Part shown: positions 4,846-37,700 of the stretch, in pieces | Layout of the letters: each line of letters opens with the position of its first letter | How positions within the stretch are numbered: position 1 is the first letter of the stretch | From: a virus | Taxonomy: Duplodnaviria; Caudoviricetes | Direction: 5' to 3' (one strand) | DNA length: 37,780 bases | Virus record (IMG/VR): IMGVR_UViG_3300020042_008470 | Coordinates: 1-37,780 of that record | The notes under the pieces: model-generated | Databases searched by the model: none | What the model was told of the DNA's origin: nothing | Seen by the model: only the letters and a program-made list of their open reading frames with translations | Position numbers and translations under genes: made by a program

Positions 4846-6607
4846 CTTCTTTGGTCCCCAATAACCCAGCCGCTCGCGGTGCCGTAGAATACTTAAGTCG
4901 CGACTTAACCTCTGACGCCATTTTCTCGATGTCCGTTCGTGGCATGTTTTTGTTTAGTTCACGATTTATAACCTTAGAATAATAACCCTTAAATTTGTCA
5001 GGGTTATCTAAAATATATTTTCTGGCACTTGCTGACAACTCGGTCCACCAACGTGTAGGGCTAAATGGTGTAAACGCGACAAACTCACGGCCCTCAGGTG
5101 TGCCGCTTGGGCCAACCTTTTGATATGTGGCGTTGTATACGGTCTCGATGTCTTTTAAAGCCTGATCGGCCTCTTTACCAAAGATTAGCTCTTTAGCCTC
5201 GGGCGACATTTTTCTAGCATTACTGACAAGCTTAGAAATTGAAACCTCACCCTTGGTCACCGACTTATTGTATATGTCTGCAACCTTCGCTTTTCTCATA
5301 ACTTCAAACGACTCAGGAAATTGTTTTTCTAGCGCTTTTAAATTTTTAACATTTGATGGGTTAAATAATTTTGATACAAACTTCTCATCTGGCATTGATT
5401 CCATTTTGCGAATAAAATCACCATAGCTTTTTACGTTACCCATACCAGACGCGCGGCCAATCTCTTGTAAATCTTTAGAAACCTGAGAGTAAATTTTATT
5501 AGCCTTTTTGATCTCGCCGATCATTTCTTTGGCCACAGACCGGCCATGCTTAGGGTTTGCCGCCGCATCTAGAGCCGATCTTGTAATAGAGTTTTGTTCT
5601 AATTTGCTTAACCGTCCGTACATTTCGCCAGAAACCTCTCTCATTGTTGGCGATAGATTTTGATCACTAAACTGCTTGCCGACATACGACCTTAGATTGC
5701 GCAACTCTTCTAAGCTTTTAACCGATCTTAAGTTATCTGAAATTTGTCTAGCAAAGCCGGCCTCTTGTGACCCCTTAATTTTGGCAAATGGTAGGCCTTC
5801 AATATTTCGTGCAATTCTCTCGCTACTTTGTGGCGAAACGACAATGGCCCGAGCGTCGCCCTCAAGCTTTTTGTAAATCTCTTGCGCCGGCTCTACGTCT
5901 TTTAATATTTTCGCCTTGGCTGACTCTTTGGCCCGACCGGCCATTTGAATTTGTGACTCTGCCGTTTTGCCAGATGATAGCGCACCCTCACCGGCCGACT
6001 TTAAACCCTCTTGAACGTTTTCTAATTGTGTCGCTACCTGTTGGCCTGAATTTGTTGGCGTTTGCGCTAGACCTGATTCCATTTTTTGTACAAATTTATC
6101 GTCTGTTAGCATTCCACGAGTAGGCGTAACTCCAAGGCGCTCACCGGCTTCGGTAATTAGCGGGGCCGTTTCTTTGGCCGGTGCGCCCATGCGACCTAAA
6201 ATCCGCTCGGCCGGTTCTTTTACATACTTGCCAACCATGCCCGCGCCCTTGCCCACTAACCCGCCGACGCCCGCGCCGGCAGCTTCAAACGCGGCCTCTT
6301 TTATTGGCCCGGCATATATATCTTCTCTTGTTTTTTCATCGCCCAACATCGACTCGCCAATATTTTGTAACGCCTTACCACCGGCCGCGCCCAACATCCC
6401 GCCGCCCAAAATGCCGGCTGGGTTTAATGAAAGAGACCCAATGGCCCCACCGGCCAAAGCGCCGGCGGCAGGCAGTGCTTTTAAAGCACCGCGACCGTAT
6501 CTTTCAAGAGCGCCCATTTCTGGCACCGCTGACTTTGCAAGATAAGCGTCCGGGTCAAACCCGCCAGATTTTTTAGCTAAATATTCGTCAGGGTTAAAAC
6601 CGCTCAT
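4838..6607 (-). CDS. Putative DNA ejection / internal virion protein
   Basis: Repeated GF(N/D)PDxYLAK N-terminus, Gly-Ala hydrophobic segment, helical body; podovirus position after tail genes. Confidence 0.65.
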   Translation of the reverse strand: MSGFNPDEYLAKKSGGFDPDAYLAKSAVPEMGALERYGRGALKALPAAGALAGGAIGSLSLNPAGILGGGMLGAAGGKALQNIGESMLGDEKTREDIYAGPIKEAAFEAAGAGVGGLVGKGAGMVGKYVKEPAERILGRMGAPAKETAPLITEAGERLGVTPTRGMLTDDKFVQKMESGLAQTPTNSGQQVATQLENVQEGLKSAGEGALSSGKTAESQIQMAGRAKESAKAKILKDVEPAQEIYKKLEGDARAIVVSPQSSERIARNIEGLPFAKIKGSQEAGFARQISDNLRSVKSLEELRNLRSYVGKQFSDQNLSPTMREVSGEMYGRLSKLEQNSITRSALDAAANPKHGRSVAKEMIGEIKKANKIYSQVSKDLQEIGRASGMGNVKSYGDFIRKMESMPDEKFVSKLFNPSNVKNLKALEKQFPESFEVMRKAKVADIYNKSVTKGEVSISKLVSNARKMSPEAKELIFGKEADQALKDIETVYNATYQKVGPSGTPEGREFVAFTPFSPTRWWTELSASARKYILDNPDKFKGYYSKVINRELNKNMPRTDIEKMASEVKSRLKYSTAPRAAGLLGTKEDE

Positions 6608-8803: not shown

Positions 8804-9139
8804 CTAAAATAAAAACACTCTTGCGGTGCCGATTGCAGAACTGCGCAAATAAGCAAAAGAGTTGTCGTTTGCCCTTGTCGCGTCGTAAATAACCATTTCT
8901 GCACTTAATCCACATACAAAATAATTTTGCGGCACAAACGCCAGTTGGTGTCTCACTTGCGTGTCCGTGTTTGCGGCCGTGAATTGAACCGTTACAAGCC
9001 CACCTTTTAAGTTTTCACTAACCGCAACGTTCTTGTTAATTACAGAGTATATGTCTTTTAAAAAAATAGTAATGGCGGCCATTTTTTGGTCTGGGTCCTC
9101 AATATTGTCAACATTCCACCAATTTCTAGGAAGCGCCAT
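8804..9139 (-). CDS. Tail accessory protein
   Basis: TAATG-coupled after the nozzle genes; VRHQLAFVP motif. Confidence 0.5.
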   Translation of the reverse strand: MALPRNWWNVDNIEDPDQKMAAITIFLKDIYSVINKNVAVSENLKGGLVTVQFTAANTDTQVRHQLAFVPQNYFVCGLSAEMVIYDATRANDNSFAYLRSSAIGTARVFLF

Positions 9140-11013
9140 TATACAGACCTCAAGTAACGACTTTCTAACGTGTAACCATTCACTATTATCGACTGAGACG
9201 ATTGAATAATAAACTCGACAGATAAACTTTTTGCCGATATTCCAAAATCAATCCTCTCTTGAAAAGATGAAACATTCAAACTCGAAACAACCGAAGCCGA
9301 ATCGGAGTAATTACTATAAAATCTTATGGTTACACCCTGGGTAGACCCAACCTCAGAGTCTATAAAGAGCCTGCGCCAAATTTCTTGAGTACTTTCGCCC
9401 AAACGCTTATGAAATCTTGTTTGGATAATCAGCGTTATCGCACTACCAAAGTCTGTGTTGAGCGAGTCATTAAACCGAGCCAAAGACTGAACTGATGCCC
9501 CTTGCACAAAATAAGAAATGTCTTGTGTGGTAGATCCATAGCTAAGTAAATCGGACCCAGTTTCAGCGTCTATTGCTACGTTATCGAAAATAGTCCAAGA
9601 TTTTACAAAATAGTCATAAACAAAGCACCGTTGGCCGGCGCAAAACCAAACCTGATTTTTTGACTTTAAATGAAACCCTCGAAGTATAGATTTGTCGACA
9701 AGATCTAGGTAGTCACCTATTGGCTCAGAAACTATTTTAATGTTTGAACCGTCATATTCGGCTATGCCCTTTTTATCGATAAACCACAGTTTGTTTTCAA
9801 ACTGCGCGACACCTTTATTGTTTAAACAGCCAAATTCGACAGACAACTCTCTGACTTGAAATGTTTCTTCGCTAGACCCGCGAAGCTCATACATTGAGTT
9901 ACCTTTAAAAATTATAAGTGCGTCTTGAAACTCGGCTAGCCCAGTTATAACGTCGCCAAACGTTGATTTTACCTGAAAGAAGTTTTCAGGCTCAGATGCG
10001 TCAGGCTCACCTAGGTTTGAATAATAAACCGTGTTTTGTTCATTGCTAGAACCATTTTGGCCGGCCCAGAAAAGAAAATTATTGTAAGACTCGGCATATT
10101 TGACGGTAAAACCAAAAGACTGTTGCTTAAAATCATCAAATTGATCAACGGTCAGGTTATCAAACTCTGCATGATACATCGTTACGCCGGCTGAAGTGGT
10201 TAAATAAAACCCAACTGGATTTTGATACAATATATTGGTCAGCCCAGCCGCTTGCCGAGCTAATGCCGGCACCACGAGGCTTATTGCTGATCCCGGCGGC
10301 ACCGTAAACCCAAAAATAACCCAGCGGCCCTCAGAAACCAGTGTGGACCCACGGCTTGTTATTAAAAACCTAGAGTTAAGCGTTAGCCCGGCCGCAAACA
10401 CTTTGCCCCCGGCTCTTTCAAACCCCAACTCTGTTTCAGCTTCACTAGCCTCAATTAAAGTTGTCATGCCGCGAGCATATATAAAGGCGGCGGCAAAAGT
10501 GCCAGACGGTATTGTGGCCGTTGGTCCGTCTGTAATGTTTGTGTTAAACGTAATGCCGGCCCCGGCTAAATAAGTAGTGAATTGACCCAAGCGATAGTTA
10601 TACGAAAGAGATCCGTTAAAAACCCCGGATACGGTGCCGTTTACAAAATACAGCCTATCATTTATTGCTTGAAAATCTATTACGCTAGCCAAAGTGTAGC
10701 TTGTCGATAACGACGCATAAATTAACGAAGGCCCTTCGGCTGTATAAAGATTAGACCCGGAGTCAAAAACCCTAAAACTTGCGCCGCTTGTTTGTAAAAA
10801 CTGATATAAGTTTGCGGGCTTTGTTATAAACGTGGCGCGTGAAAACGTTGTCCCGACACCAATCCCAGCCCGCGAAGTTAAAGCACCGGGCCTAACAAAT
10901 GTGTAATTTCTTAAGTTTAAAAACTGCGTGTCTGGCGTTTTATAGGTTGATACAATCTGGTTTATTCCACCCAAATTGTTGTACTGCTCTTCTTTTAGTT
11001 TTTCATAGGCCAT
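9139..11013 (-). CDS. Tail nozzle / stabilization protein (P22 gp10 / T7 gp12-like), paralog B
   Basis: GGIN N-terminus, beta-propeller-like YYSNLGEP, GDVITGL, GC motifs; follows the adaptor gene. Confidence 0.7.
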   Translation of the reverse strand: MAYEKLKEEQYNNLGGINQIVSTYKTPDTQFLNLRNYTFVRPGALTSRAGIGVGTTFSRATFITKPANLYQFLQTSGASFRVFDSGSNLYTAEGPSLIYASLSTSYTLASVIDFQAINDRLYFVNGTVSGVFNGSLSYNYRLGQFTTYLAGAGITFNTNITDGPTATIPSGTFAAAFIYARGMTTLIEASEAETELGFERAGGKVFAAGLTLNSRFLITSRGSTLVSEGRWVIFGFTVPPGSAISLVVPALARQAAGLTNILYQNPVGFYLTTSAGVTMYHAEFDNLTVDQFDDFKQQSFGFTVKYAESYNNFLFWAGQNGSSNEQNTVYYSNLGEPDASEPENFFQVKSTFGDVITGLAEFQDALIIFKGNSMYELRGSSEETFQVRELSVEFGCLNNKGVAQFENKLWFIDKKGIAEYDGSNIKIVSEPIGDYLDLVDKSILRGFHLKSKNQVWFCAGQRCFVYDYFVKSWTIFDNVAIDAETGSDLLSYGSTTQDISYFVQGASVQSLARFNDSLNTDFGSAITLIIQTRFHKRLGESTQEIWRRLFIDSEVGSTQGVTIRFYSNYSDSASVVSSLNVSSFQERIDFGISAKSLSVEFIIQSSQSIIVNGYTLESRYLRSV

Positions 11014-12833
11014 TATACAGACCTCAAAAATCTAGACTCTACCGTGTAACCGTTTACCGTTACCGCAGTCGATGCCTGAATGACCCATTTAAAAGACATG
11101 CTTTTTGCCGACAATCCAAAATCAAGTCTATTTTGAAACTGATTTGTTGAAAACCCGCGCGTTAATGAAACGTCAGAGTCATAGTTTGGTAAAAAGCTGA
11201 CCGTACAGCCGAGCGTTGTGCCGTTAGTATCAATGTCTAAAAATAATCTACGCCAAATTTCTTGAGTACTTTCGCCAAGGCGCTTGTGATAGCGGCTTTG
11301 TATTAATAGCGTTATCGGCAAGCCTCTGTCTGTATTTAATGAGTCATCAAATCTAGTAAAAGACGTAAAACTTGAGCCTGTGCTTATAAAGTTTATCGCT
11401 GGCGTTGTCGCGCCCGCCTGTATTAGTGCGGCCCCAAGATTGTTTTGTATTTCAAGCCGGTCATAAATAGTCCACGCATTTACGTCATAATCAAAAACAA
11501 AACACTCGTTACCAAAACAAAACCACACTTCATTTCTGTCTTTAACATGAAACGCACGACATTTTGATTTATCAACTAAGCTTAATTTTTGTTCAACAGC
11601 ATATGAAACGATAAATGTATTCGGGCCGTTGTATTCACAAATTCCCTTTTGATCACAAAACCAAAGCTTGTTTTCAAATGTGACGGCCCCTGTGCTATTT
11701 ACGCACCCATACTCATGAGTCATATTTTTTAAACTTAAATTTTGCGGGGCATCGCCATTAATTTCATGAACAGAGTTATTTTTAAACACGACAAGAGTGT
11801 CCTGAAACGTAATCATGTTTGTTATAACGTCGCCATTGTCTGTTCTTATTTCTACAAAGTTTTCAAGCTGAACCTGATAAGGCGCTCCCAGATCTGAATA
11901 CCACACGTTAGATGTTTGAGACGAAAACCCACCCATAAAAAGCATATTTTTATATGTCTCTAAATATTGAGGAACTAAAGTAAAGTGCGGTATTGTCTGG
12001 TATTCAGTGTCGAAATTAAAATCTTCAAATAAAATTTCGGGGTAATTGTATTGCGTCGTATCCAAGTTGCTAGGGGCTGTAAAAAAATCTGCCTGGCCCG
12101 GCCTCTTGATTTGCATTATGATGCCAACGCCGTAAGCCTCTGCCGCGTTTGTGTATCCGCTGACATACCAGCCGTTTGTTGCGATTGTTGCGGCCGTGTA
12201 ATAATATAAAAGCCCGCCAATACCAGTTAGTGTCGTGCCGGTTGGTTCGCCTAAAACACCGTCTTTTATGTACGTGTATCTAAACGCATAGGTTCCGGGG
12301 TTAATAATGTATGTTGCGCTATAGTCGATCAGCCCGGTAATAGTTGTGACGAACCTGGCCGCGCCTGGGCCATACCACCCGCCCGCCTGAGGTATAGAAT
12401 AAAGACTTGATATTAAAGTAGGCGCTGATAAATAAACATTTTGAAAGGTTCTACCATTAGCGAAATACATTTTATTATTTGCCGTTACAAAATCTACACT
12501 TGCAGACGTTGTTACATTTGCGGTTAAACTTTGCGCAAAAGCGACAGGCGGCGAAGATAAATAAAAAAGCGTTGGCCCAACATCAAAAACAACAAAGCTT
12601 GAACCGCTACCACTTATAAACTGATACATAGATTTTGGCGGTATTAAATACGTGGCGAGCGCCAAGGATGCAAAGTCAGCGGTGCCAGATCTTGAAGTTA
12701 AAGCGCCCGGCCGCTCAAAGCCATAATTACGAATATCTAAAAACTGGTTTGGGCCAGTTTGATATTTGGAGGATTTTTCATTAATCCCGCCAGTGTTATC
12801 GTAACTCTCTTCTTTCAGCTTCTCGTAGGCCAT
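11013..12833 (-). CDS. Tail nozzle / stabilization protein, paralog A
   Basis: Same motifs as 9139-11013 (MAYEKLKEE, RPGALTSR, HKRLGESTQEIWRRLF, NGYT.ESR.LRSV). Confidence 0.7.
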   Translation of the reverse strand: MAYEKLKEESYDNTGGINEKSSKYQTGPNQFLDIRNYGFERPGALTSRSGTADFASLALATYLIPPKSMYQFISGSGSSFVVFDVGPTLFYLSSPPVAFAQSLTANVTTSASVDFVTANNKMYFANGRTFQNVYLSAPTLISSLYSIPQAGGWYGPGAARFVTTITGLIDYSATYIINPGTYAFRYTYIKDGVLGEPTGTTLTGIGGLLYYYTAATIATNGWYVSGYTNAAEAYGVGIIMQIKRPGQADFFTAPSNLDTTQYNYPEILFEDFNFDTEYQTIPHFTLVPQYLETYKNMLFMGGFSSQTSNVWYSDLGAPYQVQLENFVEIRTDNGDVITNMITFQDTLVVFKNNSVHEINGDAPQNLSLKNMTHEYGCVNSTGAVTFENKLWFCDQKGICEYNGPNTFIVSYAVEQKLSLVDKSKCRAFHVKDRNEVWFCFGNECFVFDYDVNAWTIYDRLEIQNNLGAALIQAGATTPAINFISTGSSFTSFTRFDDSLNTDRGLPITLLIQSRYHKRLGESTQEIWRRLFLDIDTNGTTLGCTVSFLPNYDSDVSLTRGFSTNQFQNRLDFGLSAKSMSFKWVIQASTAVTVNGYTVESRFLRSV

Positions 12834-13801: not shown

Positions 13802-16093
13802 TTATAAACCCATCTCTTGAGCTTCTCTTTCAATCTGCTTAATCATGGCACCACGTAGGCCGCCAAAATCAATAAAGTGATACGCAACTAGACGCCATGA
13901 GTGATCAAAACCGGTCATGTCGATTTTTTCCCACGCGCGGGAATCAAGGGCATAAAGCAGTTGTATCGCCCAAAGCTCCTTTTCTTCCGTCGTGTTAGCG
14001 TCCAAAAATAAAAGCTTTGCCCAACCACGGTCTGCAAAAGGCCTCAGTGTGTTTTTTAAGGCCCCAAGCTCGCGCGCAATCGCAAAGCAACCCGCGTACA
14101 TAGCTTCAATTGCCGTAATACAAAATGTTTCAATAAAGTTAGCCGGGTATAGCCACACTACGGCCTCTTTCATTTCGCGAGCTAGCGTTTTTTGGTCAAC
14201 GTTGCCGTGGTATTTAATCCAAGACTTAGACTTAATTAAATCTAAAAGCTTTTGGGCCTTTTCTTCAAGACCCGGCGCTTTTAATAAATTCTCAATGCCG
14301 TAGTAAACGTGAAGCTCCAAATCTCGGCCCGACTTTGCGCGAGCTATTTCTATAATATCAATCGCCCGCTCTAATCCACGATCAGGACTAGACGGCCACA
14401 CAATCTTGTTCTCGTTTTTTACAACCGTCATATCGAAGCGCTCTTTGTTAACGCCATTACTCGTGACCAAAATCTTTTCCGGTGGAATGTTTTGCGTCAC
14501 TTGTAAAAAGTTTTTATGAAACTCAGATAGCGCCAAAATCATTGTATAATTAGCGTGGTTTTCTGCGCCCGGGGTCATCAAGTCATGACACCACACAAAA
14601 GTAGGAGCGCTGGTTAATTTAACCGCATGTCGCCAAGCATAGTGAACTTTTGGTTCAAATTGTGCGAAGTATTCAAAGGCCTGTTGAGCCGGCCTGTAAA
14701 TAACGCCGCTCTCACATATTTTTTCACTTTCACGAGTGTTAAATACGATTACATTTCGCCCAGTGATTTTTTTAATGTGAGCCGCGACCTCGACAAGTGC
14801 CGTTTCGCTTCCACCAAAGCCTTTTGTTTTATAAAGCTCTTCGTCAAATGGGTAAGGGTGAGATCCTGGCAAACAAGTAAAAACAACGTCGTCGCATTTT
14901 TGTTTGTCTACGTTATCATTTTTTTCAATAGACGACTTCATATTTAAAAGCTCGCCCAATAGTTTTTTTGACTCATCATGACCGAAAAGCTTTACGCTTT
15001 CAGTTGCCACAACAATTGCTGATTCAATGTCTCCAAGCTTAAAGTGAATTCGTGCCATCATGTCGCGTGGAACATGCTCATACGCGGTGTGATTAACGTA
15101 CAAAAACCCCTGACCTTGGCCCGCTGGTTTTTTACATTGAACAGCCGCACCGTAAAGTGGTAACGCCTCTGTTTCTCTACCCATTTTTACTAAACAGTCC
15201 GCCGCTAAACAGTAAAACTCAGCACGGTTAGGTGCTAGCGCCATACCATTACAGGCAAGTGACAAACCTTTGGCGAGTAAAGTTGGGTCTTTTTTGTTTG
15301 CCGGTAAATGCTCCTGCTCGGAGTGGTATCTATGCAAACAAGCTCTGACCAAATACTCAAAAGTTAAAATGCGGTCATGGCCCTCAAGTTGCGGGTGGTC
15401 CGCCACCTGATCAAGCCATACGTAGCCCTCCGCAAAACGGCCCTTATCACAAAGCTCTTTACCGTAGTAAAACTTTAATCGTGGCGGCAACTCTTCAATT
15501 TTTGAGCGCTTTTCTAAAATAGTGACGTTGCGGTTAAAATCCACTTCGTAATCTTTTAATGTTCGCCTGTGGTTAACCGTCCAATTGTTTGCAAGCATGG
15601 CTTGAACAAATTCTTGCGCAATCATTCCTTCGTGAATAAAATATTCCCACTTAAACTTCTTTGTTGTGCGAATTACGCGTTCTCGTAAAAAAGTACAAAC
15701 AGGCCGGCCCTTATCGTCGTAAGCATAATTATATGGGGCAAGCCAGAAATCAGATAAAACCATGACTTCGTCACGCCACATTTTAAACGCCTCTTTACTC
15801 GACATGGCGTCATCAAGATCAAGCCACATGACATACTCTTCTGTAACGCCTTCCATTGAGTAATTTCTGGCAGCGGCAAAATCTTCAATCCACTTGAAAT
15901 GCTTTAACGTGACTGGGCAACCGGCTATTTTTTCAGCCTCACCACTTGTAACAACTTCGATTGTGCCGTCTGTTGATCCTGTGTCCGTTAAGTAAATGTG
16001 ATCATAACAACCCGCCACGCTTTCAAGCATGGGTCTAATGTGATCGATCTCGTTTTTCATGATGCATGCAAGTGCAATTGTAGGTCTGTTCAT
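13802..16093 (-). CDS. Bifunctional glycosyltransferase (GT2 - TPR - GT4/GT-B)
   Basis: IMKNE, DTGSTDGT, DFAAARN, WLDLDD, IHE (GT2); TPR-like PNRAEFY; GGSET, SSPDRGL, ETFCITAIEAM (GT4). Confidence 0.92.
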   Translation of the reverse strand: MNRPTIALACIMKNEIDHIRPMLESVAGCYDHIYLTDTGSTDGTIEVVTSGEAEKIAGCPVTLKHFKWIEDFAAARNYSMEGVTEEYVMWLDLDDAMSSKEAFKMWRDEVMVLSDFWLAPYNYAYDDKGRPVCTFLRERVIRTTKKFKWEYFIHEGMIAQEFVQAMLANNWTVNHRRTLKDYEVDFNRNVTILEKRSKIEELPPRLKFYYGKELCDKGRFAEGYVWLDQVADHPQLEGHDRILTFEYLVRACLHRYHSEQEHLPANKKDPTLLAKGLSLACNGMALAPNRAEFYCLAADCLVKMGRETEALPLYGAAVQCKKPAGQGQGFLYVNHTAYEHVPRDMMARIHFKLGDIESAIVVATESVKLFGHDESKKLLGELLNMKSSIEKNDNVDKQKCDDVVFTCLPGSHPYPFDEELYKTKGFGGSETALVEVAAHIKKITGRNVIVFNTRESEKICESGVIYRPAQQAFEYFAQFEPKVHYAWRHAVKLTSAPTFVWCHDLMTPGAENHANYTMILALSEFHKNFLQVTQNIPPEKILVTSNGVNKERFDMTVVKNENKIVWPSSPDRGLERAIDIIEIARAKSGRDLELHVYYGIENLLKAPGLEEKAQKLLDLIKSKSWIKYHGNVDQKTLAREMKEAVVWLYPANFIETFCITAIEAMYAGCFAIARELGALKNTLRPFADRGWAKLLFLDANTTEEKELWAIQLLYALDSRAWEKIDMTGFDHSWRLVAYHFIDFGGLRGAMIKQIEREAQEMGL

Positions 16094-25183: not shown

Positions 25184-25565
25184 GACAGTTTAACCCATCG
25201 CGACGCGCCAGATCCTCGGCTTGGCCGGCCAAACAAAGTCTAATGTTTTTATAAATGTAATAGCCTACTGGATGAATTTTGCCGCCATAGAAATGCTTTA
25301 ACACCGCTTCATCGACTTCAATCCAGTCTGATTTTGTGGCCTGAGCATAAGCTACCGCCGCGTCTAGTTGAATGATCTTTTCAGCAATCGCCATGCGCTC
25401 TTCGTGGCTAGCTTTGGTTTCTTGTTTACCGACAACGTCAGAGATACTGACAACGCGTTCAGTAGGCTGTTCACTCAAACTCTTCTCGATGGGTTTGCGC
25501 TTGGCCTTCTGTGAGTCGTCTAATGTATTGCTTTTCATAGTCGGGGTGGTTGGGATTTGTGACAT
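25125..25565 (-). CDS. Hypothetical protein
   Basis: AGGA SD; overlaps the TerL-C tail. Confidence 0.6.
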   Translation of the reverse strand: MSQIPTTPTMKSNTLDDSQKAKRKPIEKSLSEQPTERVVSISDVVGKQETKASHEERMAIAEKIIQLDAAVAYAQATKSDWIEVDEAVLKHFYGGKIHPVGYYIYKNIRLCLAGQAEDLARRDGLNCHEIVFPKDEFSCGVRSARK

Positions 25566-26295
25566 TTGTTTCTTCCTTTGGTTTATCTGGGTAAAACGCT
25601 ATCTCTTCTATACTTGCTAAAGCATCCAATAAATCATCATGCGCGCCTCTAGGAAAACTCTTGTACTCAACGAACAAATCGTCAAGACCTTCGTTTACAA
25701 ATATTTTGCCATACTCAAATCTTGGGACAAGTGATCGAATTCTAAGCGGCTTGGAGTTGTTAGACCGTTTGCCGCCGTCCGTTGTAATGTTTGAGCGTCT
25801 AACGCCCTTAATGGGCACAATTTGGTTTCTTCGCTGCATTTCTTCGCTAAGAAAATGTAATAAAGCTCGTTGATAAGCCACGTCTTCGACACCGATAACC
25901 GATGGATTAAAGGCAGTATGAACGTCAAAAATGTGTTTAACGGTATCTGTCGCAGTAATCCTTTGACGGTGGGCGAGCCTGACATACCAGTTCTTTTGCC
26001 AATCAACGTGAACAACCACTGTTGCAGTAAAGTCAGCGCCATCATTAAGGCTGATAGCAGGGTCAATAAAAGCGAAAGTGTAATAATTTTCAGGTAACTT
26101 ATCATATTGTTTAAACCACCCAGCTTTGAAGTCTTGTTCCTCATCCGGTATGACCTGATTGAGATACTGGCTTGTAAATTTATACACGCCTTGCGATTTG
26201 CGAAGCTCATCAAGCTTAGCCTGGTCAAGCTTTTCAGGGAAGAATAAAGATCCGTCGTCATTGTAAGCGCCCTGATAAACTATACCCCAACTCAT
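25471..26295 (-). CDS. terL: Terminase large subunit, C-terminal part (end of ATPase/lid region + RNase H-like nuclease)
   Basis: LFFPEK, FTSQYLN, FIDPAIS..DFTA, GVEDVAYQ, K..RI, FPRGAHDDLLDALA. Confidence 0.9.
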   Translation of the reverse strand: MSWGIVYQGAYNDDGSLFFPEKLDQAKLDELRKSQGVYKFTSQYLNQVIPDEEQDFKAGWFKQYDKLPENYYTFAFIDPAISLNDGADFTATVVVHVDWQKNWYVRLAHRQRITATDTVKHIFDVHTAFNPSVIGVEDVAYQRALLHFLSEEMQRRNQIVPIKGVRRSNITTDGGKRSNNSKPLRIRSLVPRFEYGKIFVNEGLDDLFVEYKSFPRGAHDDLLDALASIEEIAFYPDKPKEETNVTNPNHPDYEKQYIRRLTEGQAQTHREEFE

Positions 26296-29904: not shown

Positions 29905-30209
29905 GGTGCGAGCGTTGTGCCTTGTGGCGCTGAGAGATAAGACACGATGTTTGCCGTTGCCGTTGCGCCACGTGAAGAGATAAAAAGCCGCCCGCCGCCC
30001 CAGATTTCATAGGCAGTTGAAGCGCTTGGAATAGCGACACCTACGGCCCCAGTGTTACCAAGAATGTGAAGGGTGCCACCTGTGTAGTTTAAGATTTGTC
30101 TTGATACTACGTTTGTATTTGGAAGCGCCACAACCAAAGATACGCCAACATCATAGGCCGCCATTGTGTAACCAACAATTTTAGTAACGTCAAACATTTC
30201 TAACCCCAT
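29901..30209 (-). CDS. Small beta-rich structural protein (start likely MFDVTK at 30197)
   Basis: GGGG SD before the second Met; overlaps the TerL-N stop. Confidence 0.55.
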   Translation of the reverse strand: MGLEMFDVTKIVGYTMAAYDVGVSLVVALPNTNVVSRQILNYTGGTLHILGNTGAVGVAIPSASTAYEIWGGGRLFISSRGATATANIVSYLSAPQGTTLAP

Positions 30210-30933
30210 TTAATTTTGGTTGTTTTTTAAACTCTTCTAAACTTTTAAAGCCAAGCTGGTTTTTAATCACCCAACCGATAATATCCTCTTCGTGGTATCT
30301 CGTTCCTATGATTGCATAAATGCCGTCAGTTTCAAGTATAGATTGATTGTACTGGTAATGATCAATAACTTTTTTTCGTTGATCAAGAGTTGAAGTGTTA
30401 GCAGGCGAGTTATAATCGTCACCTATAATTACATCGTAATGTTGCCCGACCTTGGTTGTGCCGATACCACCGCATGAGATTGACGGCTCTTTTAAAACCT
30501 TGTTGCGTTTACCGATTGTAATCTCTGAGTCATTCCAAGAATAACCTAGTTTCTTTTGCTGATCGGGCGACGGCATCCAATTGCTAAATAGGTCTATAAA
30601 CTCAGGCAGCATAACAAGGTTTTTAATCGCGTTTAGATAAGTGACTGAGTTGCCGTATAGCTCAGAGTCTATAAGTATGCGCAGGTTAGGGTCACGCATG
30701 AGTAGCCAAATAGGGTAGGCAATGGCCCCGATACTGGACTTAAACGTGCCACGTGGAACACAAATCATTTTGCGCTTACACGGACCCTCTAGAACTGAAA
30801 CTATCGGCTCATGGGTCTGTGCCGTCATGTCTTTAAACCCACACAAGTGTTTTGCCGTGGCGTATAGCGACTGTGTGTAAACTTGTTTAAGTGCTGCTTT
30901 AATTATGTGCGGAGGTTGTTTAGTTAGATCCAC
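30190..30933 (-). CDS. terL: Terminase large subunit, N-terminal ATPase part
   Basis: Walker A PRGTFKS, Walker B YDVIIGDD, motif III IIGTRYH..D; directly after TerS. Confidence 0.9.
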   Translation of the reverse strand: MDLTKQPPHIIKAALKQVYTQSLYATAKHLCGFKDMTAQTHEPIVSVLEGPCKRKMICVPRGTFKSSIGAIAYPIWLLMRDPNLRILIDSELYGNSVTYLNAIKNLVMLPEFIDLFSNWMPSPDQQKKLGYSWNDSEITIGKRNKVLKEPSISCGGIGTTKVGQHYDVIIGDDYNSPANTSTLDQRKKVIDHYQYNQSILETDGIYAIIGTRYHEEDIIGWVIKNQLGFKSLEEFKKQPKLNGVRNV

Positions 30934-31619: not shown

Positions 31620-32868
31620 GGTTCCACTCTATTTGTTTGCCGTTTTTCTTTATTTTAGTTTGGCCGGTGTATTTAGACCATCTTGATACAATAACGTCTA
31701 TGTAATGAGGGTCTAGCTCCATCATAAAACATTTGCGTTTTGTTTTTTCACAGGCGATTAGAGTTGAACCGGAGCCGCCGAATACATCAACGACAGATTT
31801 TGGATCATAATGATTTAATATGTCTACAAAAAGTCCCACTGGCTTTTGAGTAGGGTGGACACGCTTTGTAAGTTCGTCTTTTCTGTCGCCTTGCCTGGTC
31901 ATGCCAACCCATGTAAATTTAAAAACCTTAACTGCTTTTTTATCGACATTCGTCCATGCCAATTCAGCACCACTAAAGTCGGCACCTTCGGGTATTTCTT
32001 TATTCCAAACTATCCAATGTGGCGAGCAGGGCAATTTATCTGAAAAATGATTAGCACCCCATATTATTTTTAATTCAGCTAAATCCATCAAATGAGTCGG
32101 GTCATATGGCTTGTCGTCTCCTATTATTGGCCTATAAACGCCAACCTTTGCTTTGTGAAATTGAGACGCGCCAACCATGGTTCCATCCGGCTTAACAACA
32201 TTCATCCCATACGGCGGATCAGTAAAAACCATATCAGCCTTAACGCCACCCATCAGCTTTTCAACGGTAGCCTTATCAGTCGAGTCGCCACACAAAAGCC
32301 TATGCTCGCCCAGTTCATACAAATCGCCAAGTTTAGACACCGGGTCTTTAGGCACCTCTGGCACTTCATCTTCAATTTCTTCTTTGTCGGTGTGGTCTTG
32401 GCTAAACTCTTTTTCGACCTCGTCAAGATCAATACCGGGCAATGAAAAGCCGTCTTTTAAATCACCAAAATCAAGGCCTGCGTTGTGTGCAAATTCAGCC
32501 AAACCACCGGGCGTAATCTTGCCGTAAGTGCTAGCTAGACTTAACAAAATCTTATTGGCCTCTTTATAGGTTTTAGCCTTAATTCGATTAACCGGGACCG
32601 CAGGCACCGCATACCCTTTTTGTTCAACGTATTGTAATAACCGAAGGCGTTGTGTGCCCCCTAAACTACATAAAGCGCCGGCCGTGCCGTAGTGACCCTT
32701 GTCATCCACCCACACGTCGATAGGGTCAACAAAGCCGTTTTCAATCACGTTGGCTTCAAACTTAACAATGTCGTCTTGATGCAGGTCTTTTAAGTCGCCC
32801 TGAATGATTTTGATTTGGTGGTAAGGCACGCGGTCTTCAACAGTTGAGTTTATTTCGATTCTTTTCAT
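31612..32868 (-). CDS. ParB-like domain fused to N6/N4 DNA methyltransferase (beta class)
   Basis: GFVDPI..GTQRL ParB-like; HRLLCGDST, VFTDPPY, HPTQKPV, DVFGGSGSTLIA. Confidence 0.92.
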   Translation of the reverse strand: MKRIEINSTVEDRVPYHQIKIIQGDLKDLHQDDIVKFEANVIENGFVDPIDVWVDDKGHYGTAGALCSLGGTQRLRLLQYVEQKGYAVPAVPVNRIKAKTYKEANKILLSLASTYGKITPGGLAEFAHNAGLDFGDLKDGFSLPGIDLDEVEKEFSQDHTDKEEIEDEVPEVPKDPVSKLGDLYELGEHRLLCGDSTDKATVEKLMGGVKADMVFTDPPYGMNVVKPDGTMVGASQFHKAKVGVYRPIIGDDKPYDPTHLMDLAELKIIWGANHFSDKLPCSPHWIVWNKEIPEGADFSGAELAWTNVDKKAVKVFKFTWVGMTRQGDRKDELTKRVHPTQKPVGLFVDILNHYDPKSVVDVFGGSGSTLIACEKTKRKCFMMELDPHYIDVIVSRWSKYTGQTKIKKNGKQIEWNHD

Positions 32869-32890
32869 GTCTCAGATCGAAACACTCGAT

Positions 32891-32917
32891 TAAAGTTTAG
32901 TCAATAAAAGCCGATGA
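32891..32917 (+). promoter_or_regulatory. Sigma28 (FliA)-type promoter
   Basis: TAAAGTTT-N11-GCCGATGA versus consensus TAAAGTTT-N11-GCCGATAA. Confidence 0.75.
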
Positions 32918-32920
32918 GTA

Positions 32921-32938
32921 TATATAAGGCGGTCAACC
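32921..32938 (+). promoter_or_regulatory. Leader/RBS motif copy 1 (TATATAAGGCGGTCAACC)
   Basis: Immediately before ATG 32940; first 16 bp identical to 34668-34683. Confidence 0.75.
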
Positions 32939-32939
32939 T

Positions 32940-33260
32940 ATGAAACTATTTAATTTTTTTCATGAAACCACGTCTGGCACGATCGGCACGTTCTTCGGCG
33001 CTAAGGCCCATGTCTTGAGCCAATTGATTGCCGGTTTCTTCGCGGTTTTGTTTAACGTTAGAGTCAGCTCTAGCACCCATAGGCTTAAACCCATCCATGA
33101 AACCAGTCTTGAGCTTATTCCAAGTGCTTTTTTCTTCTTCACCCATACAATAGAATTTCGGGTTTTTAAGCGCGTTTGTAAAGTCCTATTTTATACGTTC
33201 TTTTTGTATATCGCTAACTGCTCTAGTTTTGATGTGGTGATTGCGAGTGTTTTAAGATAA
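32940..33260 (+). CDS. Possible antisense-overlapping ORF, 106 aa
   Basis: Has a promoter, the shared RBS motif and an ATG, but fully overlaps 32946-33146 on the other strand. Confidence 0.35.
   Translation: MKLFNFFHETTSGTIGTFFGAKAHVLSQLIAGFFAVLFNVRVSSSTHRLKPIHETSLELIPSAFFFFTHTIEFRVFKRVCKVLFYTFFLYIANCSSFDVVIASVLR
32946..33146 (-). CDS. Small hydrophilic hypothetical protein
   Basis: Natural-looking composition; same strand as the late operon. Confidence 0.55.
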   Translation of the reverse strand: MGEEEKSTWNKLKTGFMDGFKPMGARADSNVKQNREETGNQLAQDMGLSAEERADRARRGFMKKIK

Positions 33261-33262
33261 CA

Positions 33263-33289
33263 ACCTAAGAGTTGATCAGGCCCTTAGGT
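33263..33289 (-). terminator. Hairpin downstream of the HNH gene, possible weak terminator
   Basis: ACCTAAGGG-9 nt-CTCTTAGGT followed by TGTTATCTT on - strand. Confidence 0.4.
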
Positions 33290-33313
33290 GGTTACGGTGT
33301 GTGTGCAATTCTT

Positions 33314-33700
33314 TTAATCCAAAATAAAATTTAAATCAAGCGGTGGTAATTCGTATTTATCACGGCAATCGTTTATTCGTTCTCTGTAGCGAAGGTAAAA
33401 GGTTTTAATGCCTATGGTGTGGCGCTCGGTGTGACATTCCCGGCACAAGGCATTGAGGTTTGTTAGTGAGTCATCGCCCCCTGAGCCTTTAGTTTTAAAG
33501 TGATCGGCGTCGGTTTGATCGTCACCGCAAATAAAGCAGGGTAAGGATTTAATCAATGATAGATTTTCGCGACTCTCAATGCGTGTGCGTTTATTAATAG
33601 TCATGGCCGTGTAGGTGCTTTCGTGTGGTCCAGAAAAGGGCTGACGAACAGTCTGGGCAATCAACTTGTGTAATTTTAGCGTTGTCTTTTTGTATTCCAA
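33314..33700 (-). CDS. HNH endonuclease-like protein (start likely MTINKR)
   Basis: CFIC..DADH....GSGG.D...NL.ALCRECH.ERH. Confidence 0.8.
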   Translation of the reverse strand: MEYKKTTLKLHKLIAQTVRQPFSGPHESTYTAMTINKRTRIESRENLSLIKSLPCFICGDDQTDADHFKTKGSGGDDSLTNLNALCRECHTERHTIGIKTFYLRYRERINDCRDKYELPPLDLNFILD

Positions 33701-33890
33701 GTCTGTTGTACTGGCTATTGACGTGTTTATTATTACAAGCTTGTGACGTGCAAAAGGCCCTGGGCCTGGTTTCTGGCTTTGGTGCCGGCTTAGTTACAAA
33801 TTCGTCGTATTTAGTATGCTGATTATATGAAGATTTAAGTTCGATCATTGTAAAGTTTACCCACCAGAAATCCGTAGAGTCAATTACCAT
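33594..33890 (-). CDS. Zinc-ribbon hypothetical protein
   Basis: CTSQAC and CPDC pairs. Confidence 0.55.
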   Translation of the reverse strand: MVIDSTDFWWVNFTMIELKSSYNQHTKYDEFVTKPAPKPETRPRAFCTSQACNNKHVNSQYNRLGIQKDNAKITQVDCPDCSSALFWTTRKHLHGHDY

Positions 33891-33958
33891 GCCAAAGAGT
33901 GCCGGGGTGGGGCAATCCTCCTTGATGTCTCATCCCGGTTCTCACCTAAAGACATCTA

Positions 33959-33986
33959 TTGACATCTTGCGTTATTGTGCTATTCT
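33959..33986 (+). promoter_or_regulatory. Sigma70-type promoter
   Basis: TTGACA-N16-TATTCT with extended -10 TG. Confidence 0.65.
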
Positions 33987-33997
33987 AATGGTTACAA

Positions 33998-34010
33998 AGG
34001 CGGTCAAACC
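33998..34010 (+). promoter_or_regulatory. Leader/RBS motif copy 2 (AGGCGGTCAAACC)
   Basis: Before ATG 34012; exact 13-nt complement of 34472-34484. Confidence 0.75.
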
Positions 34011-34011
34011 T

Positions 34012-34167
34012 ATGAACTACAATGTATATCTAAAAATGTTTCAGATGTTAAAAGCCAAGGGCATGACAAAATTAGAGGCTCTTTCCTGTTTATCTTTTGA
34101 AGGCGATCAGATACTAGACGACGTTGAACTAAAGGCGGCGCTTGAAGATGTTTACGGCGGTGATTAA
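34012..34167 (+). CDS. Small hypothetical protein (start revised from 33889)
   Basis: Promoter and RBS motif sit directly before MNYNVY. Confidence 0.65.
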   Translation: MNYNVYLKMFQMLKAKGMTKLEALSCLSFEGDQILDDVELKAALEDVYGGD

Positions 34168-34169
34168 AC

Positions 34170-34445
34170 GTGAGTGAGACAGAAAAGCAGCGTGATTTTA
34201 ACGTCTACATTGAAAACGACCGATATTACGTTAGGGCCTATGTGACAGTCTATTTTAGACGAGTTGACGCAGGGTTTGACCATGAGTTTGGATTTAGACA
34301 GGAATGGGAATGGGAACCGTATCAGGTTATTATTGAGTCGGTTAGAAACCCCGAGACTGGCGAAGAGTGGGGCAAGGTTCCTAAGGACTTAGAAGAGTTA
34401 ATTGAAAATAAAGCGATTATTGAAGCTAATGAAATAGGACTTTAA
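34170..34445 (+). CDS. Acidic hypothetical protein
   Basis: GGCGGTGA SD; ORF track. Confidence 0.65.
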   Translation: MSETEKQRDFNVYIENDRYYVRAYVTVYFRRVDAGFDHEFGFRQEWEWEPYQVIIESVRNPETGEEWGKVPKDLEELIENKAIIEANEIGL

Positions 34446-34512
34446 TCCCAGCGGGTTTGGGCTATCATGTTGGTTTGACCGCCTCATAACTGCTCATTCC
34501 CGCTCGGGGTTA
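34443..34512 (+). ncRNA. Candidate antisense / riboregulator hairpin RNA
   Basis: Stems TAATCCC/GGGGTTA, AGCGGG/CCCGCT, TGGGC/GCTCA, ATG/CAT; loop TTGGTTTGACCGCCT; two G-U pairs favour the + strand. Confidence 0.65.
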
Positions 34513-34518
34513 TTTACT

Positions 34519-34626
34519 GTGGACCACCCATTTCTAACGTTTCTAGCATGGTTGTGCGCCTTTTTAGGGGCCGTCCTAGTGTGCTTTGTACTGATCGTTT
34601 TACTCTTGAGTGTGCTATCAATTTGA
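34519..34626 (+). CDS. Small single-TM peptide, 35 aa (not in ORF track)
   Basis: GTG start, MDHPFLTFLAWLCAFLGAVLVCFVLIVLLLSVLSI*; GGGG SD at 34506-34509. Confidence 0.55.
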   Translation: MDHPFLTFLAWLCAFLGAVLVCFVLIVLLLSVLSI

Positions 34627-34635
34627 TACGCTGCG

Positions 34636-34664
34636 TTGACTTATCTTAAATGATCTGTCATACT
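34636..34664 (+). promoter_or_regulatory. Sigma70-type promoter
   Basis: TTGACT-N17-CATACT with extended -10 TG. Confidence 0.7.
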
Positions 34665-34667
34665 TAT

Positions 34668-34686
34668 TATATAAGGCGGTCAAATC
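34668..34686 (+). promoter_or_regulatory. Leader/RBS motif copy 3 (TATATAAGGCGGTCAAATC)
   Basis: Immediately before ATG 34689. Confidence 0.75.
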
Positions 34687-34688
34687 TT

Positions 34689-34994
34689 ATGAAATATTTA
34701 ATTTGTACAATGTTTTTAATCTTAACGGCTTGTGGGTCATCTGACAAAACGTATGACTCAGATACAGGCTACCCAATTACACAACAATATGGGCGTCAAA
34801 TTATGGTGGACTTTGTAGATCAAAATTGTGGTGGTAACTATGATTTGGTTTGCGAAGATTTGTATCGTAGGTTTTTTGGCGACAAACTTATCGAGTTTTA
34901 TAACAAGCCGGCCAGTGCTTTAAAAATCATCGACCTAGACCCTGATCTTGCCTCAGACACTAAGCGCTTTGAGGACTACGTTCGCAATTACTGA
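34689..34994 (+). CDS. Lipoprotein, possible superinfection-exclusion factor (start revised from 34650)
   Basis: MKYLICTMFLILTAC-GSS: signal peptide II with LTAC lipobox. Confidence 0.75.
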   Translation: MKYLICTMFLILTACGSSDKTYDSDTGYPITQQYGRQIMVDFVDQNCGGNYDLVCEDLYRRFFGDKLIEFYNKPASALKIIDLDPDLASDTKRFEDYVRNY

Positions 34995-35003
34995 CGCTTA
35001 TTG

Positions 35004-35031
35004 TTAAGTTTGACAATCTGTGCGACGATAT
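35004..35031 (+). promoter_or_regulatory. Possible second sigma28-like promoter
   Basis: TTAAGTTT-N12-GACGATAT before the GGGGGTGA SD of 35049. Confidence 0.4.
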
Positions 35032-35048
35032 GTCTATGGGGGTGACCT

Positions 35049-35246
35049 ATGGATGTTATTCACAATAAAATTTTACAAGCTCTTATAAACGCAGGCGTTA
35101 AAGTTAAGGGTGTGTCTGAAACAGAGGACGGTATATTCATTAGCATTTCAGACTCAGGCACCAAATACCGTGTGTTTTGCGCTAAAGAAACGCCTATGCC
35201 ATTAAAACTAGTTAAAGAAGCCGAGCTTTATAATTTAGAATATTAA
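35049..35246 (+). CDS. Small hypothetical protein
   Basis: Strong SD GGGGGTGA. Confidence 0.65.
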   Translation: MDVIHNKILQALINAGVKVKGVSETEDGIFISISDSGTKYRVFCAKETPMPLKLVKEAELYNLEY

Positions 35247-37185: not shown

Positions 37186-37455
37186 ATGAAAAATTTAGGC
37201 GTGCAGTGCGTAGTTTTACAAAGAGGATGGGTTGTTATTGGCTATCTAGAAAAGAACAAAGAAATGTATTCGCTAAAAAAAGCAAGTGTCGTTCGTAATT
37301 GGGGTACGACAAAAGGGCTTGGTGAATTGATTAAATCGGGGCCACTTAGCAATACGAAACTTGACCCAACAAACGGTACAGTAAGATTTCATGAATTAAC
37401 TGTTGTTATGCGAGTGAAATGTGATGAGGCGTTATGGTCAAAGCATCTAGCTTAG
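37186..37455 (+). CDS. Small phage beta-barrel-like protein of the type often found upstream of Gly-rich repeat ORFs
   Basis: RGWVVIG, R.WGTTKGLGEL...GP....LD motifs. Confidence 0.6.
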   Translation: MKNLGVQCVVLQRGWVVIGYLEKNKEMYSLKKASVVRNWGTTKGLGELIKSGPLSNTKLDPTNGTVRFHELTVVMRVKCDEALWSKHLA

Positions 37456-37700
37456 GCGAAGATAGTCAAACTATTGGATTAAATAACGGCGACGGCAACG
37501 GCTACGCCAACGGCGACGGAAACGGCTACGGCTACGGCAACGCCAACGGCAACGGCGACGGCAACGGCAACGGCGACGGCTACGGCTACGGCAACGGCTA
37601 CGGCTACGGCTACGGCTACGGCAACGCCAGCGGCGACGGCAACGGCTACGGCTACGGCTACGGCTACGGCAACGGCGACGGCAACGGCTACGGCGGGTAG
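37434..37700 (+). CDS. Gly-X (N/D/Y) dipeptide repeat protein
   Basis: Encoded by a GGC(T/A/G)AC hexamer array at about 37485-37695. Confidence 0.7.
   Translation: MVKASSLGEDSQTIGLNNGDGNGYANGDGNGYGYGNANGNGDGNGNGDGYGYGNGYGYGYGYGNASGDGNGYGYGYGYGNGDGNGYGG

Follow-up and report, generated by a model that had tools for sequence, protein, structure and literature searches.

In a stretch of 37,780 nt of DNA from an uncultured phage (the whole of which is called the window here), a hairpin at the 3' end of a predicted early transcript from promoter P2 is likely to be an antisense RNA. Its tip would pair with three predicted early messages and block ribosome loading, a reading to which we assign a probability of about 0.55. 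The complementary element, called the tag below, is an asymmetric repeat of about 13 bp lying over the Shine-Dalgarno (SD) site before start codons. Three copies are in forward orientation, and a fourth is inverted and intergenic. The tag covers three gene starts and its mirror copy occupies the tip of a hairpin that is kept in a relative, so this RNA probably binds those messages; of the readings considered, tip pairing at the three translation-start regions has the best support. An earlier note on this DNA had proposed an RNA-based immunity or timing switch, with the C4 and CI RNAs as precedents. Its pairing hairpin stands, supported by a distant relative (L050) and by target ranking, but the C4/CI link and the immunity role do not. 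The immunity role lacks support, since the 59 ORFs, many of which match no family at all, include no recognized integrase, repressor or helix-turn-helix (HTH) family. Timing or feedback is the more likely half of the original guess.

Table 1. Predicted features of the tag and hairpin region (positions in the window)
Feature	Position	Strand	Description
Target copy 1	32927..32938	+	AGGCGGTCAACC, one A short; SD-like AGGCGGT; 1 nt to ATG 32940
ORF1	32940..33260	+	106 aa, hydrophobic; antisense over conserved - strand ORF 32946-33146
Promoter P2, predicted sigma-70	33959..33986	+	TTGACA-16-TATTCT, TG present; 10/12 matches; 26/28 bases identical in L050
Target copy 2	33998..34010	+	Perfect complement of hairpin tip; 1 nt to ATG 34012
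ORF2	34012..34167	+	51 aa; homologue searches found none
Partial tag GGCGGT	34156..34161	+	Precedes ORF3 GTG; possible weak secondary target; net -10.7 kcal/mol, rank 5/53
ORF3	34170..34445	+	91 aa, function unassigned; stop codon forms first hairpin bases
Predicted antisense hairpin, 70 nt	34443..34512	+	3' end of predicted P2 transcript
Pairing arm	34465..34489	+	UCAU (anti-AUG) 34465-68; anti-tag 34472-84; U-turn-type loop UUGACC 34475-80
Promoter P3, predicted sigma-70	34636..34664	+	TTGACT-17-CATACT, TG present; 9/12 matches
Target copy 3	34674..34686	+	Single C-to-T change, giving G-U; 2 nt to ATG 34689
ORF4	34689..34994	+	Predicted lipoprotein, 101 aa; hydrophobic leader; Cys15 invariant in 8/8 aligned proteins

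All four reported copies of the tag, three on the + strand and one inverted, were recovered, and each forward copy lies just upstream of an ATG as had been described (Table 1). A 10-mer with at least five G+C that occurs four times within 1.8 kb is found once in the real genome and in none of 300 order-4 Markov simulations. With a looser count, of 13-mers with up to two mismatches, six occurrences are observed against a mean of 1.53, and one of 100 shuffles reached six.

On the + strand the hairpin folds with -33.0 kcal/mol (z -5.0), and none of 200 shuffled sequences is equally stable. The - strand fold reaches -25.3 kcal/mol (z -3.8), which bears out the claim that folding favours the + strand. 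The structure is a single unbranched stem with one complementary segment, both in the window and in L050. The 13-mer had been described as the apical loop. It does lie at the hairpin tip, but only six of its 13 bases (UUGACC) form an open loop, which is enclosed by a 3-bp stem (GGU 34472-74 with GCC 34481-83). In both phages this loop opens with UUGA, which fits the YUNR motif (PMC6562991); the fit is weak evidence alone because such 4-mers are common. Copy 2 lies 474 nt upstream of the anti-tag behind P2, with no terminator called in between, and the joint transcript is a predicted one. The hairpin itself is not listed by the terminator scan, and the U-tract 3' of it is weak. All three targets share its strand, at distances of 190-1545 nt.

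Pairing had been given as 13/13 for copy 2, 13/13 with one G-U pair for copy 3, and 10 nt plus a bulge for copy 1. The values for copies 2 and 3 are reproduced, and copy 1 forms 12 pairs around a 1-nt bulge. Missed at that stage was the extension of pairing into the start codon, where UCAU (34465-68) is complementary to AUGA in all three targets. Trans binding was evaluated by an opening-energy calculation, RNAcofold being unable to model loop pairing and thus uninformative for this purpose. Opening the pairing arm costs 5.9 kcal/mol, and net energies are -18.8 for copy 2, -18.5 for copy 3 and -16.4 for copy 1. When all 53 gene starts are ordered by energy with opening costs included, these targets take ranks 1-3, ahead of 50 others that average -3.4 and reach -11.1 at best; the ranking is partly circular because the motif was chosen for complementarity. 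The - strand hairpin reaches only -5.8 net. Cis pairing of the tip with copy 3 upon read-through has a probability of 0 in a nested model, which is blind to pseudoknots.

Each tag had also been placed 9-11 nt after a -10 element. This spacing applies to copy 2 (11 nt) and copy 3 (9 nt) but not to copy 1, where the promoter scan lists nothing on the + strand and the best hexamer by eye, GAGTAT, is 5 nt off. The P3 region lies outside the sequence of every relative fetched. ORF1 is the least certain gene because it runs antisense over a conserved - strand ORF. Its frame is open from the same start in a second relative, L046 (102 aa), and in P0005 (106 aa, 66% identical), and beyond the overlap 12 synonymous and 14 non-synonymous codon changes separate it from L046. 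No family was found for ORF1, and Atlas searches returned no usable family for ORF2 or ORF4. The ORF4 lipoprotein has seven relatives at 31-49% identity and no Pfam or PHROG family. A role for ORF2 as an autoregulatory repressor was set aside: it has no homologue or HTH match, and another gene takes its place in L050. A tRNA/tmRNA search found none.

L050 is distant enough that the adjacent gene has a third-codon identity of 0.34, with one of 16 fourfold sites the same. It nonetheless retains most of P2 (Table 1), 12 of 13 bases of the copy-2 tag and ten contiguous bases of the tip. Its hairpin (954-1006; -27.4, z -5.7) is again more stable on the + strand and starts at the same stop codon as in the window. 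The tag stays although the gene after copy 2 differs, being one of 93 aa in L050. Compared with the window, the apical closing pair changes from G-C to A-U, and a structure-fitted alignment adds at most four further double-sided stem changes. L050 is the one relative in which the hairpin was found, and its contig ends 3 nt past it. Among the four non-indel departures from perfect pairing (C>T in copy 3; A>G in the L050 tag; C>U and G>A in the L050 tip), three yield G-U pairs in + strand RNA and the L050 G>A change yields a C-A mismatch. Covariation of loop and targets, which the earlier note had put forward as a check, was not found: no Watson-Crick tip-tag pair is swapped, and the two comparable phages differ hardly at all in tip and tag. 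Cross pairs match cognate pairs in strength, the L050 hairpin reaching -15.1 on its own target and -16.8 on copy 2 of the window, and the window hairpin -19.2 on the L050 target.

For a model built from the window only, L050 is the best non-self match, a weak one (16.1 bits, E 0.43 in 765 kb; next 15.6). An exact hairpin pattern search of viral contigs gave no matches, and ORF3 or P0002 as query gave no confirmed relatives. With alignment A1 as query, at least one distant viral locus (50 of 64 parts scanned) and five metagenome loci were found, and among the latter only L050 has the system; genome contigs gave no match for A1 or for the terminase. Among GenBank phages there is no DNA relative and no lipoprotein match, capsid matches are below 30%, and Erf matches are at 35-40% among the matches listed. 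A match to Cobetia phage Carin1 was discarded, as it comprises a shared replication-gene start only. The coverage from a single DNA run is confined to two short pieces, both off the motif. Scanning for the tag plus ATG gave 44 loci, none similar to the window by blastn. A promoter-plus-tag scan gave 30 loci, none similar by tblastx, and an 8-mer complement lies 2-3.5 kb away in four of the 30, about what chance would give. A short tag-plus-ATG scan (51 of 64 parts) gave at least 119 loci, one of them the L046 contig, with a 9-mer complement in 0 of 119. This last scan is a weak control that adds no instance, 39 of the 119 loci having flanks of only about 300 nt.

Taken together, the predicted elements suggest how such a switch could operate. 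Host sigma-70 polymerase would start short-leader transcripts at P2 and P3, and probably upstream of copy 1; of these predicted starts, P2 is conserved. Read directly from the sequence, each tag combines a Shine-Dalgarno-like site with a private address reaching to the AUG. The P2 transcript would end in the hairpin, which may persist within the full-length mRNA or, after decay, as a stable 3' product. According to the computed energies, the U-turn-type loop would seed on the single-stranded leader, and pairing would then spread over about 18-23 nt including the AUG, with the basal stems remaining shut. Translation of the lipoprotein, ORF1 and ORF2 would drop as the RNA accumulates; action on copies 1 and 3 would be in trans, and that on copy 2 could be in cis or trans. 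The outcome would be delayed negative feedback that limits a pulse of early gene expression, and the RNA could also silence a sibling phage that arrives later.

Other explanations account for parts of these data. The 10-13-mer might be a protein site, either an operator near the transcription start or a site for an RNA-binding protein, with the fourth copy as an operator or decoy within a terminator-like hairpin. Asymmetric 13-bp stoperators of Cluster A phages act on transcription (PMC3203893), copies 2 and 3 sit at a usual repressor position after the -10 element, and the P2 spacer too is highly conserved, so a protein may read DNA here. On the - strand, copies 1 and 3 also serve as spacers of promoter-like sites (TTCATA-16-TATACT and TTCATA-16-TATAAT), a reading that is lost in L046 and L050. 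However, it is the gap to the ATG that is fixed, at 0-2 nt, whereas the gap to the -10 element varies (5, 9 and 11 nt, and 19 nt in L050). A DNA site has no need of the hairpin-tip position seen in both phages, and for an RNA-binding protein the fourth copy would be available only in the - strand fold, the less stable of the two. The missing HTH and repressor families also count against a protein, tempered by the many ORFs with no family. This explanation is unlikely, if the least unlikely of the alternatives. Regulation confined to cis is improbable as well. The 3' hairpin would then fold back on its own P2 leader, ORF2 being translated until the 3' end is made, and copies 1 and 3 would be unregulated duplicates of a promoter-RBS cassette. 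Copy 2 is the sole perfect match and the sole tag seen with the hairpin in a relative, and it pairs with the tip with a probability of about 0.95 in a fold of the 533-nt P2 transcript. That equilibrium fold dismantles the hairpin stems, however, which co-transcriptional folding would likely disfavour. Moreover, L046 keeps copy 1 as a perfect 13-mer directly before an ATG despite a changed upstream flank, and the change in copy 3 preserves pairing as G-U.

It is also conceivable, with a rather small chance, that pairing regulates nothing, and that a strong RBS cassette gave rise to three copies, with one inverted copy trapped in an ordinary 3' stabilizing or terminator hairpin. The AGGCGGT of the tag, which is one base off the SD consensus, would suit such a cassette. 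Read on the - strand, the hairpin looks like copy 1 for about 23 nt and continues into an ATG and an 8-codon ORF, as an inverted duplicate would, but this ATG is not kept in L050. Nor would a mere cassette account for ten tip bases that stay unchanged next to a gene with 34% third-position identity, or for the GGTCAA-CC extension, which none of the other listed gene starts carries. The least probable alternative reverses the direction of control, so that short 5' leaders invade the hairpin and its opening changes how the P2 transcript terminates, is read through or decays at its end. The tags do lie within a few bases of predicted 5' ends, and the U-turn motif is on the hairpin here but on the target in hok/Sok (PMC6562991). 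Control of read-through would gain little because the downstream gene has its own predicted P3, and the SD and AUG of the leader would be covered by pairing whichever strand is the regulator.

The antisense switches known from phages, C4 and CI, each govern a single operon, and both belong to temperate phages. If the preferred reading, an antisense hairpin with three targets, is true, a hairpin of 50-70 nt that recognizes one address common to several early messages, each with its own promoter, would provide a compact means, free of proteins, of timing early genes or excluding siblings, and it could be re-addressed by changing a dozen bases.

The likeness to C4 of P1/P7 (RF01695) and to P4 CI lies in a phage RNA with predicted co-transcription with a target and loop-target pairing, which in C4 covers the RBS (PMC5320573, PMC4825925, PMC10111431). 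C4 has three stem-loops with two recognition loops (a', b') and is processed by RNase P to an RNA of about 77 nt, and CI pairs with seqA upstream and seqC downstream to cause premature termination (same sources). Unlike these RNAs, the candidate is one unbranched hairpin with one seed, and its targets are separately promoted. Membership in the C4/CI group fails on the single stem versus three and on the absence of an Rfam match: the whole window has no C4 or isrK match at E<=1, region 32850-35100 gives only an unrelated snoRNA model at E 5.4, and L050 and L046 give none at gathering score. With hok/Sok and the pIP501 pair RNAII/RNAIII the hairpin shares a YUNR sequence (UUGA) at the 5' side of the loop, the likely first contact; in the former pair the U-turn loop lies on hok mRNA, where Sok RNA invades it (PMC6562991). 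Those pairs are encoded in cis on opposite strands (PMC6562991), whereas regulator and targets here lie on one strand at separate places.

Anatomically, the closest elements are the Start-Associated Sequences (SAS) of Cluster K mycobacteriophages, as an analogue rather than a homologue. The SAS is an asymmetric 13-bp motif over the SD, conserved beyond 16S pairing, that precedes the ATG of non-structural genes and has one inverted copy away from starts (PMC3203893); similar motifs occur in Microbacterium Cluster EF phages (PMC7302621). The tag likewise lies over the SD in a single orientation and, being kept in L046 and L050, is conserved to a degree that 16S pairing does not require, with one inverted copy off gene starts. 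It differs in sequence, in copy number (3 versus 11-19) and in the gap to the ATG (0-2 versus 3-7 nt; PMC3203893), and Cluster K phages are temperate, whereas no integrase is recognized here. ESAS inverted repeats lie upstream of about half of SAS sites (PMC3203893), and none of this type adjoins the tags among the 25 longest inverted repeats listed. In seven of seven K1-type phages checked, the inverted SAS lies in a 10-11-nt loop topping a long predicted + strand hairpin. Among four further Cluster K phages with intact SAS tags, two (Amgine and DarthP) have a drifted loop and two (Keshu and Pixie) lack it; in K3 and K6 phages the loop was looked for in the right-end 15-17 kb. Drift or loss with an unchanged SAS counts against the pairing reading, and a test for covariation between loop and SAS in Cluster K phages gave a negative result. 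The Cluster K evidence is mixed.

A general phage design can be put forward only tentatively, and we hold it more doubtful than not: early genes would carry a private SD-plus-address tag, and one mirror-image hairpin RNA would repress them as an RNA-only regulon with no repressor protein. Such a design would also account for the lone inverted copy of the SAS in Cluster K1 phages, unexplained since 2011, and would be testable in cultured phages on M. smegmatis. It would give SAS-type tags a concrete mechanism; their role is left open in papers from 2011, 2024 and 2025 (PMC3203893, PMC11373665, PMC12699233), the latter two still calling it unknown. Searches of the open-access literature brought up no description of the present element or of an anti-SAS hairpin.

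In mode of action, the best reading by analogy is with OppZ and CarZ of Vibrio cholerae, which derive from 3' UTRs, pair with their own transcript and inhibit translation, giving negative feedback (PMC7398697). In the window and in L050 alike, a hairpin at the 3' end of a predicted operon is complementary to the start of the gene in the ORF2 position. OppZ and CarZ are experimentally established chromosomal small RNAs processed by RNase E, whereas the phage element is a predicted hairpin that would seed through its loop and would have two further targets, both on separate transcripts. It would act most nearly as they do, as a 3'-end-derived antisense hairpin exerting delayed negative feedback.

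At the level of sequence, a 13-nt tag is clearly placed over the Shine-Dalgarno (SD) sites and AUG codons of three predicted genes, ORF1, ORF2 and ORF4; the earlier note had described its three copies and the inverted copy on a predicted hairpin. One G+C-containing 10-mer of the real genome is present four times inside a 1.8-kb span, a pattern seen in 0/300 order-4 Markov simulations. The hairpin is predicted to fold better on the + strand (-33.0 kcal/mol, z -5.0) than on the - strand (-25.3 kcal/mol), again in agreement with that note. The inverted copy does occupy the hairpin tip, but it is not one 13-nt apical loop: a 3-bp stem encloses an open loop of 6 nt, UUGACC. A -10 element had been placed before every copy; promoters are predicted at copies 2 (10/12 matches) and 3 (9/12), but there is none at copy 1. 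Since the region holds 17 promoter-like sites versus 15.1 expected by chance, only the conserved P2, before copy 2, is secure.

Coordinates of features in the window and in other phages
Feature	Position	Strand	Remark
Tag copies 1, 2, 3 (starts)	32927, 33998, 34674	+	each 1-2 nt 5' of ATG
Inverted tag copy	34472-34484		atop 70-nt hairpin
Predicted promoter P2	33959-33986		
Overlapping ORFs	32940-33260 / 32946-33146	+ / -	antiparallel
Large terminase, ATPase and nuclease genes	30190-30933 and 25471-26295 (-)		~3.9 kb apart
21-bp inverted repeat	6519-6539 / 12669-12689		perfect; arms 6.1 kb apart
Tandem paralogues	9139-11013, 11013-12833		flanked by repeat arms
Glycosyltransferase	13802-16093	-	two domains (GT2, GT1 with TPR)
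Gly-Tyr-Asn repeat ORF	37434-37700	+	88 aa
Small hairpin with GGU-UUGACC-GCC tip	L015, L017 ~3920-4065	+	also L029, L034 (-)
Inverted SAS in loop	L206:29871-29883 (JF704106 59870-59882), L207:13635-13647, L210-L213, L215		contrast L214, L216, L217, L208

Two relatives document the conservation of tag and tip. L046, ~75% identical to the window in DNA over the structural genes, carries a perfect 13-mer immediately 5' of the ORF1 ATG with an altered upstream flank; its contig stops short of the hairpin position. L050, a metagenome contig of 1009 nt, is syntenic with the window (a 98-aa - strand ORF, promoter, tag, then a homologue of the 91-aa ORF3). Its neutral sites are near saturation, with third-position identity of 0.34 over 86 codons and 1/16 fourfold sites the same, yet it keeps 26/28 promoter bases and 12/13 tag bases. 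In both phages the hairpin starts at the ORF3 stop codon, and 10 contiguous tip bases are common. The L050 hairpin (53 nt) has a predicted energy of -27.4 kcal/mol (z -5.7, 0/500 shuffles). Its apical closing pair is A-U where the window has G-C, and when L050 is aligned to a covariance model whose sole input was the window hairpin, up to four further double-sided stem changes appear. A search of 100/221 sources (765 kb) with this model returned L050 as top non-self match, though at only 16.1 bits (E 0.43; next 15.6), and one over 10 chosen loci gave E 0.036. Because the hairpin alignment is structure-fitted and comprises two sequences, synteny carries the weight. The L050 tag precedes a different 93-aa protein, so coding does not account for its retention. 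In the more distant ORF3 homologues, L051-L055, the tag is missing.

With opening costs of both partners included, the + strand hairpin is predicted to pair with copies 2, 3 and 1 at -18.8, -18.5 and -16.4 kcal/mol. This puts them first to third among the 53 starts tested, in a ranking that is partly circular. The remaining 50 starts average -3.4 kcal/mol, the best being 37434 with -11.1, followed by the ORF3 start with -10.7. The computed cost of opening the tip is 5.9 kcal/mol, basal stems remaining shut, and the predicted duplex spans SD-like site and AUG. The L050 hairpin and target would pair at -15.1 kcal/mol, and the - strand form of the window hairpin would reach only -5.8 kcal/mol. 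The start at 37434 belongs to a Gly-Tyr-Asn repeat ORF standing behind a DUF6948-like gene.

We favor, with a probability of roughly 0.55, a reading in which the hairpin would persist as a stable RNA and lower translation of the tagged messages, so limiting an early pulse. Covariation of loop and targets, to which the earlier note had looked, did not emerge between the window and L050: no Watson-Crick pair is swapped between tip and tag, a single L050 change introduces a mismatch at the duplex end, and cross pairs bind as strongly as cognate pairs, all of which counts against antisense pairing. A site for a protein is unlikely, if the foremost alternative; the P2 spacer, as conserved as the hexamers in L050, points to a further constraint, for example a protein site or a leftward promoter that overlaps it.

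Close behind in probability is fold-back in cis only. Within its predicted limits, the folded P2 transcript pairs copy 2 with the tip at a probability of ~0.95, so cis action is possible for this copy. Copy 1 lies 1.5 kb farther upstream, beyond - strand genes, and copy 3 follows downstream behind a predicted promoter of its own, so both would need trans action. An absence of any regulation is rather improbable. The reverse direction of regulation is the least probable of these.

ORF4 belongs to a real small protein family, with an invariant cysteine at the lipobox position (7 relatives). This predicted lipoprotein suggests a two-membrane host; an exclusion role is a guess by analogy with phage lipoproteins. 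Support for translation of ORF1 is moderate: in three phages its frame stays open from one shared start, but it overlaps a conserved - strand ORF. Both antiparallel ORFs are open in L046, and the + strand one also in another relative, P0005; they are a candidate overlapping gene pair. No ORF2 homologues were found.

The window is a complete circular phage genome, given that the same 121 nt stand at both of its ends and its assembly is a single contig. Family scans of its 59 ORFs found P22/SU10-like portal, major head protein, adaptor, two-gene terminase, SLT lysin, Erf, SSB, Gam/gp157, RusA and two methyltransferases. No integrase or repressor appeared at E<=0.01, which upholds the remark that no repressor gene is recognisable and leaves the suggested P1/P4-style lysogenic immunity without support. 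Many small ORFs lack a family, so a novel repressor is possible. No cultured relatives were found among the GenBank phages searched. About nine ORFs, including a Gp80-like fibre/head protein, separate the terminase halves; in L045 and L046 only one 100-aa ORF does. Both arms of the 21-bp repeat lie within virion-protein ORFs, and the glycosyltransferase gene is inside the virion block.

The hairpin's GGU-UUGACC-GCC tip also occurs in unrelated phages, in a small hairpin ~50 nt upstream of its complement. These loci were chosen by tag pattern, so the tip sequence is not independent evidence. The complement lies within a terminator-like stem just 5' of a replication gene starting MAGDWIK (followed in L015 by a DnaB-like gene), and a conserved leader ORF of 46-48 codons crosses the element and overlaps the replication start. 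This element, which has no Rfam match, is reminiscent of the leader-peptide/pseudoknot control of IncI plasmid replication.

The earlier note pointed to C4 and related families, and no Rfam match of C4/CI type was obtained for the window element. The phage antisense RNAs C4 and CI are defined in the available sections of PMC5320573, PMC4825925 and PMC10111431; the window element differs in having a single stem and no Rfam match, and membership was rejected on these grounds. Phage sRNAs with several targets include lambda PreS and Vibrio VpdS (available text of 10.1101/2024.10.31.621285). Open-access literature yielded no account of the window element or of an anti-SAS hairpin, a matter on which PMC2864571 S1, S3 and S7 and the PMC3203893 figures could bear; the accessible part of PMC12360218 holds nothing of relevance.

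The closest anatomy is that of Cluster K mycobacteriophages' Start-Associated Sequences (SAS), 13-bp tags 5' of ATG, accompanied in four K1 phages by one inverted copy; whether RNA or protein is their partner is left open in the sections available (PMC3203893). Their role is still termed unknown in accessible parts of PMC11373665 and PMC12699233, the latter without the words 'antisense' or 'hairpin'. Similar motifs of Microbacterium Cluster EF phages are treated in PMC7302621, and the YUNR (U-turn) loop type that UUGA fits is described in PMC6562991. The Cluster K genomes were compared over right-arm stretches. In Anaya and Angelica a long hairpin is predicted, with the inverted SAS in its apical loop. 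The region is contained in 137 GenBank records, and 5 of 8 more examined, from more divergent rows, have the exact loop. [quoted passage not shown] In several records a doubtful hypothetical ORF is annotated across it. In Amgine and DarthP the loop has drifted and is C/U-rich with SAS unchanged, Keshu and Pixie lack it, and with up to 2 mismatches allowed no such copy was seen in the TM4 stretch examined. No loop-SAS covariation was seen in the Cluster K phages examined. As a comparison of predicted structures, the SAS analogy is real in K1 yet not universal. The proposed mode of action would be like that of OppZ and CarZ, autoregulatory sRNAs derived from 3' UTRs, as described in the available text of PMC7398697.
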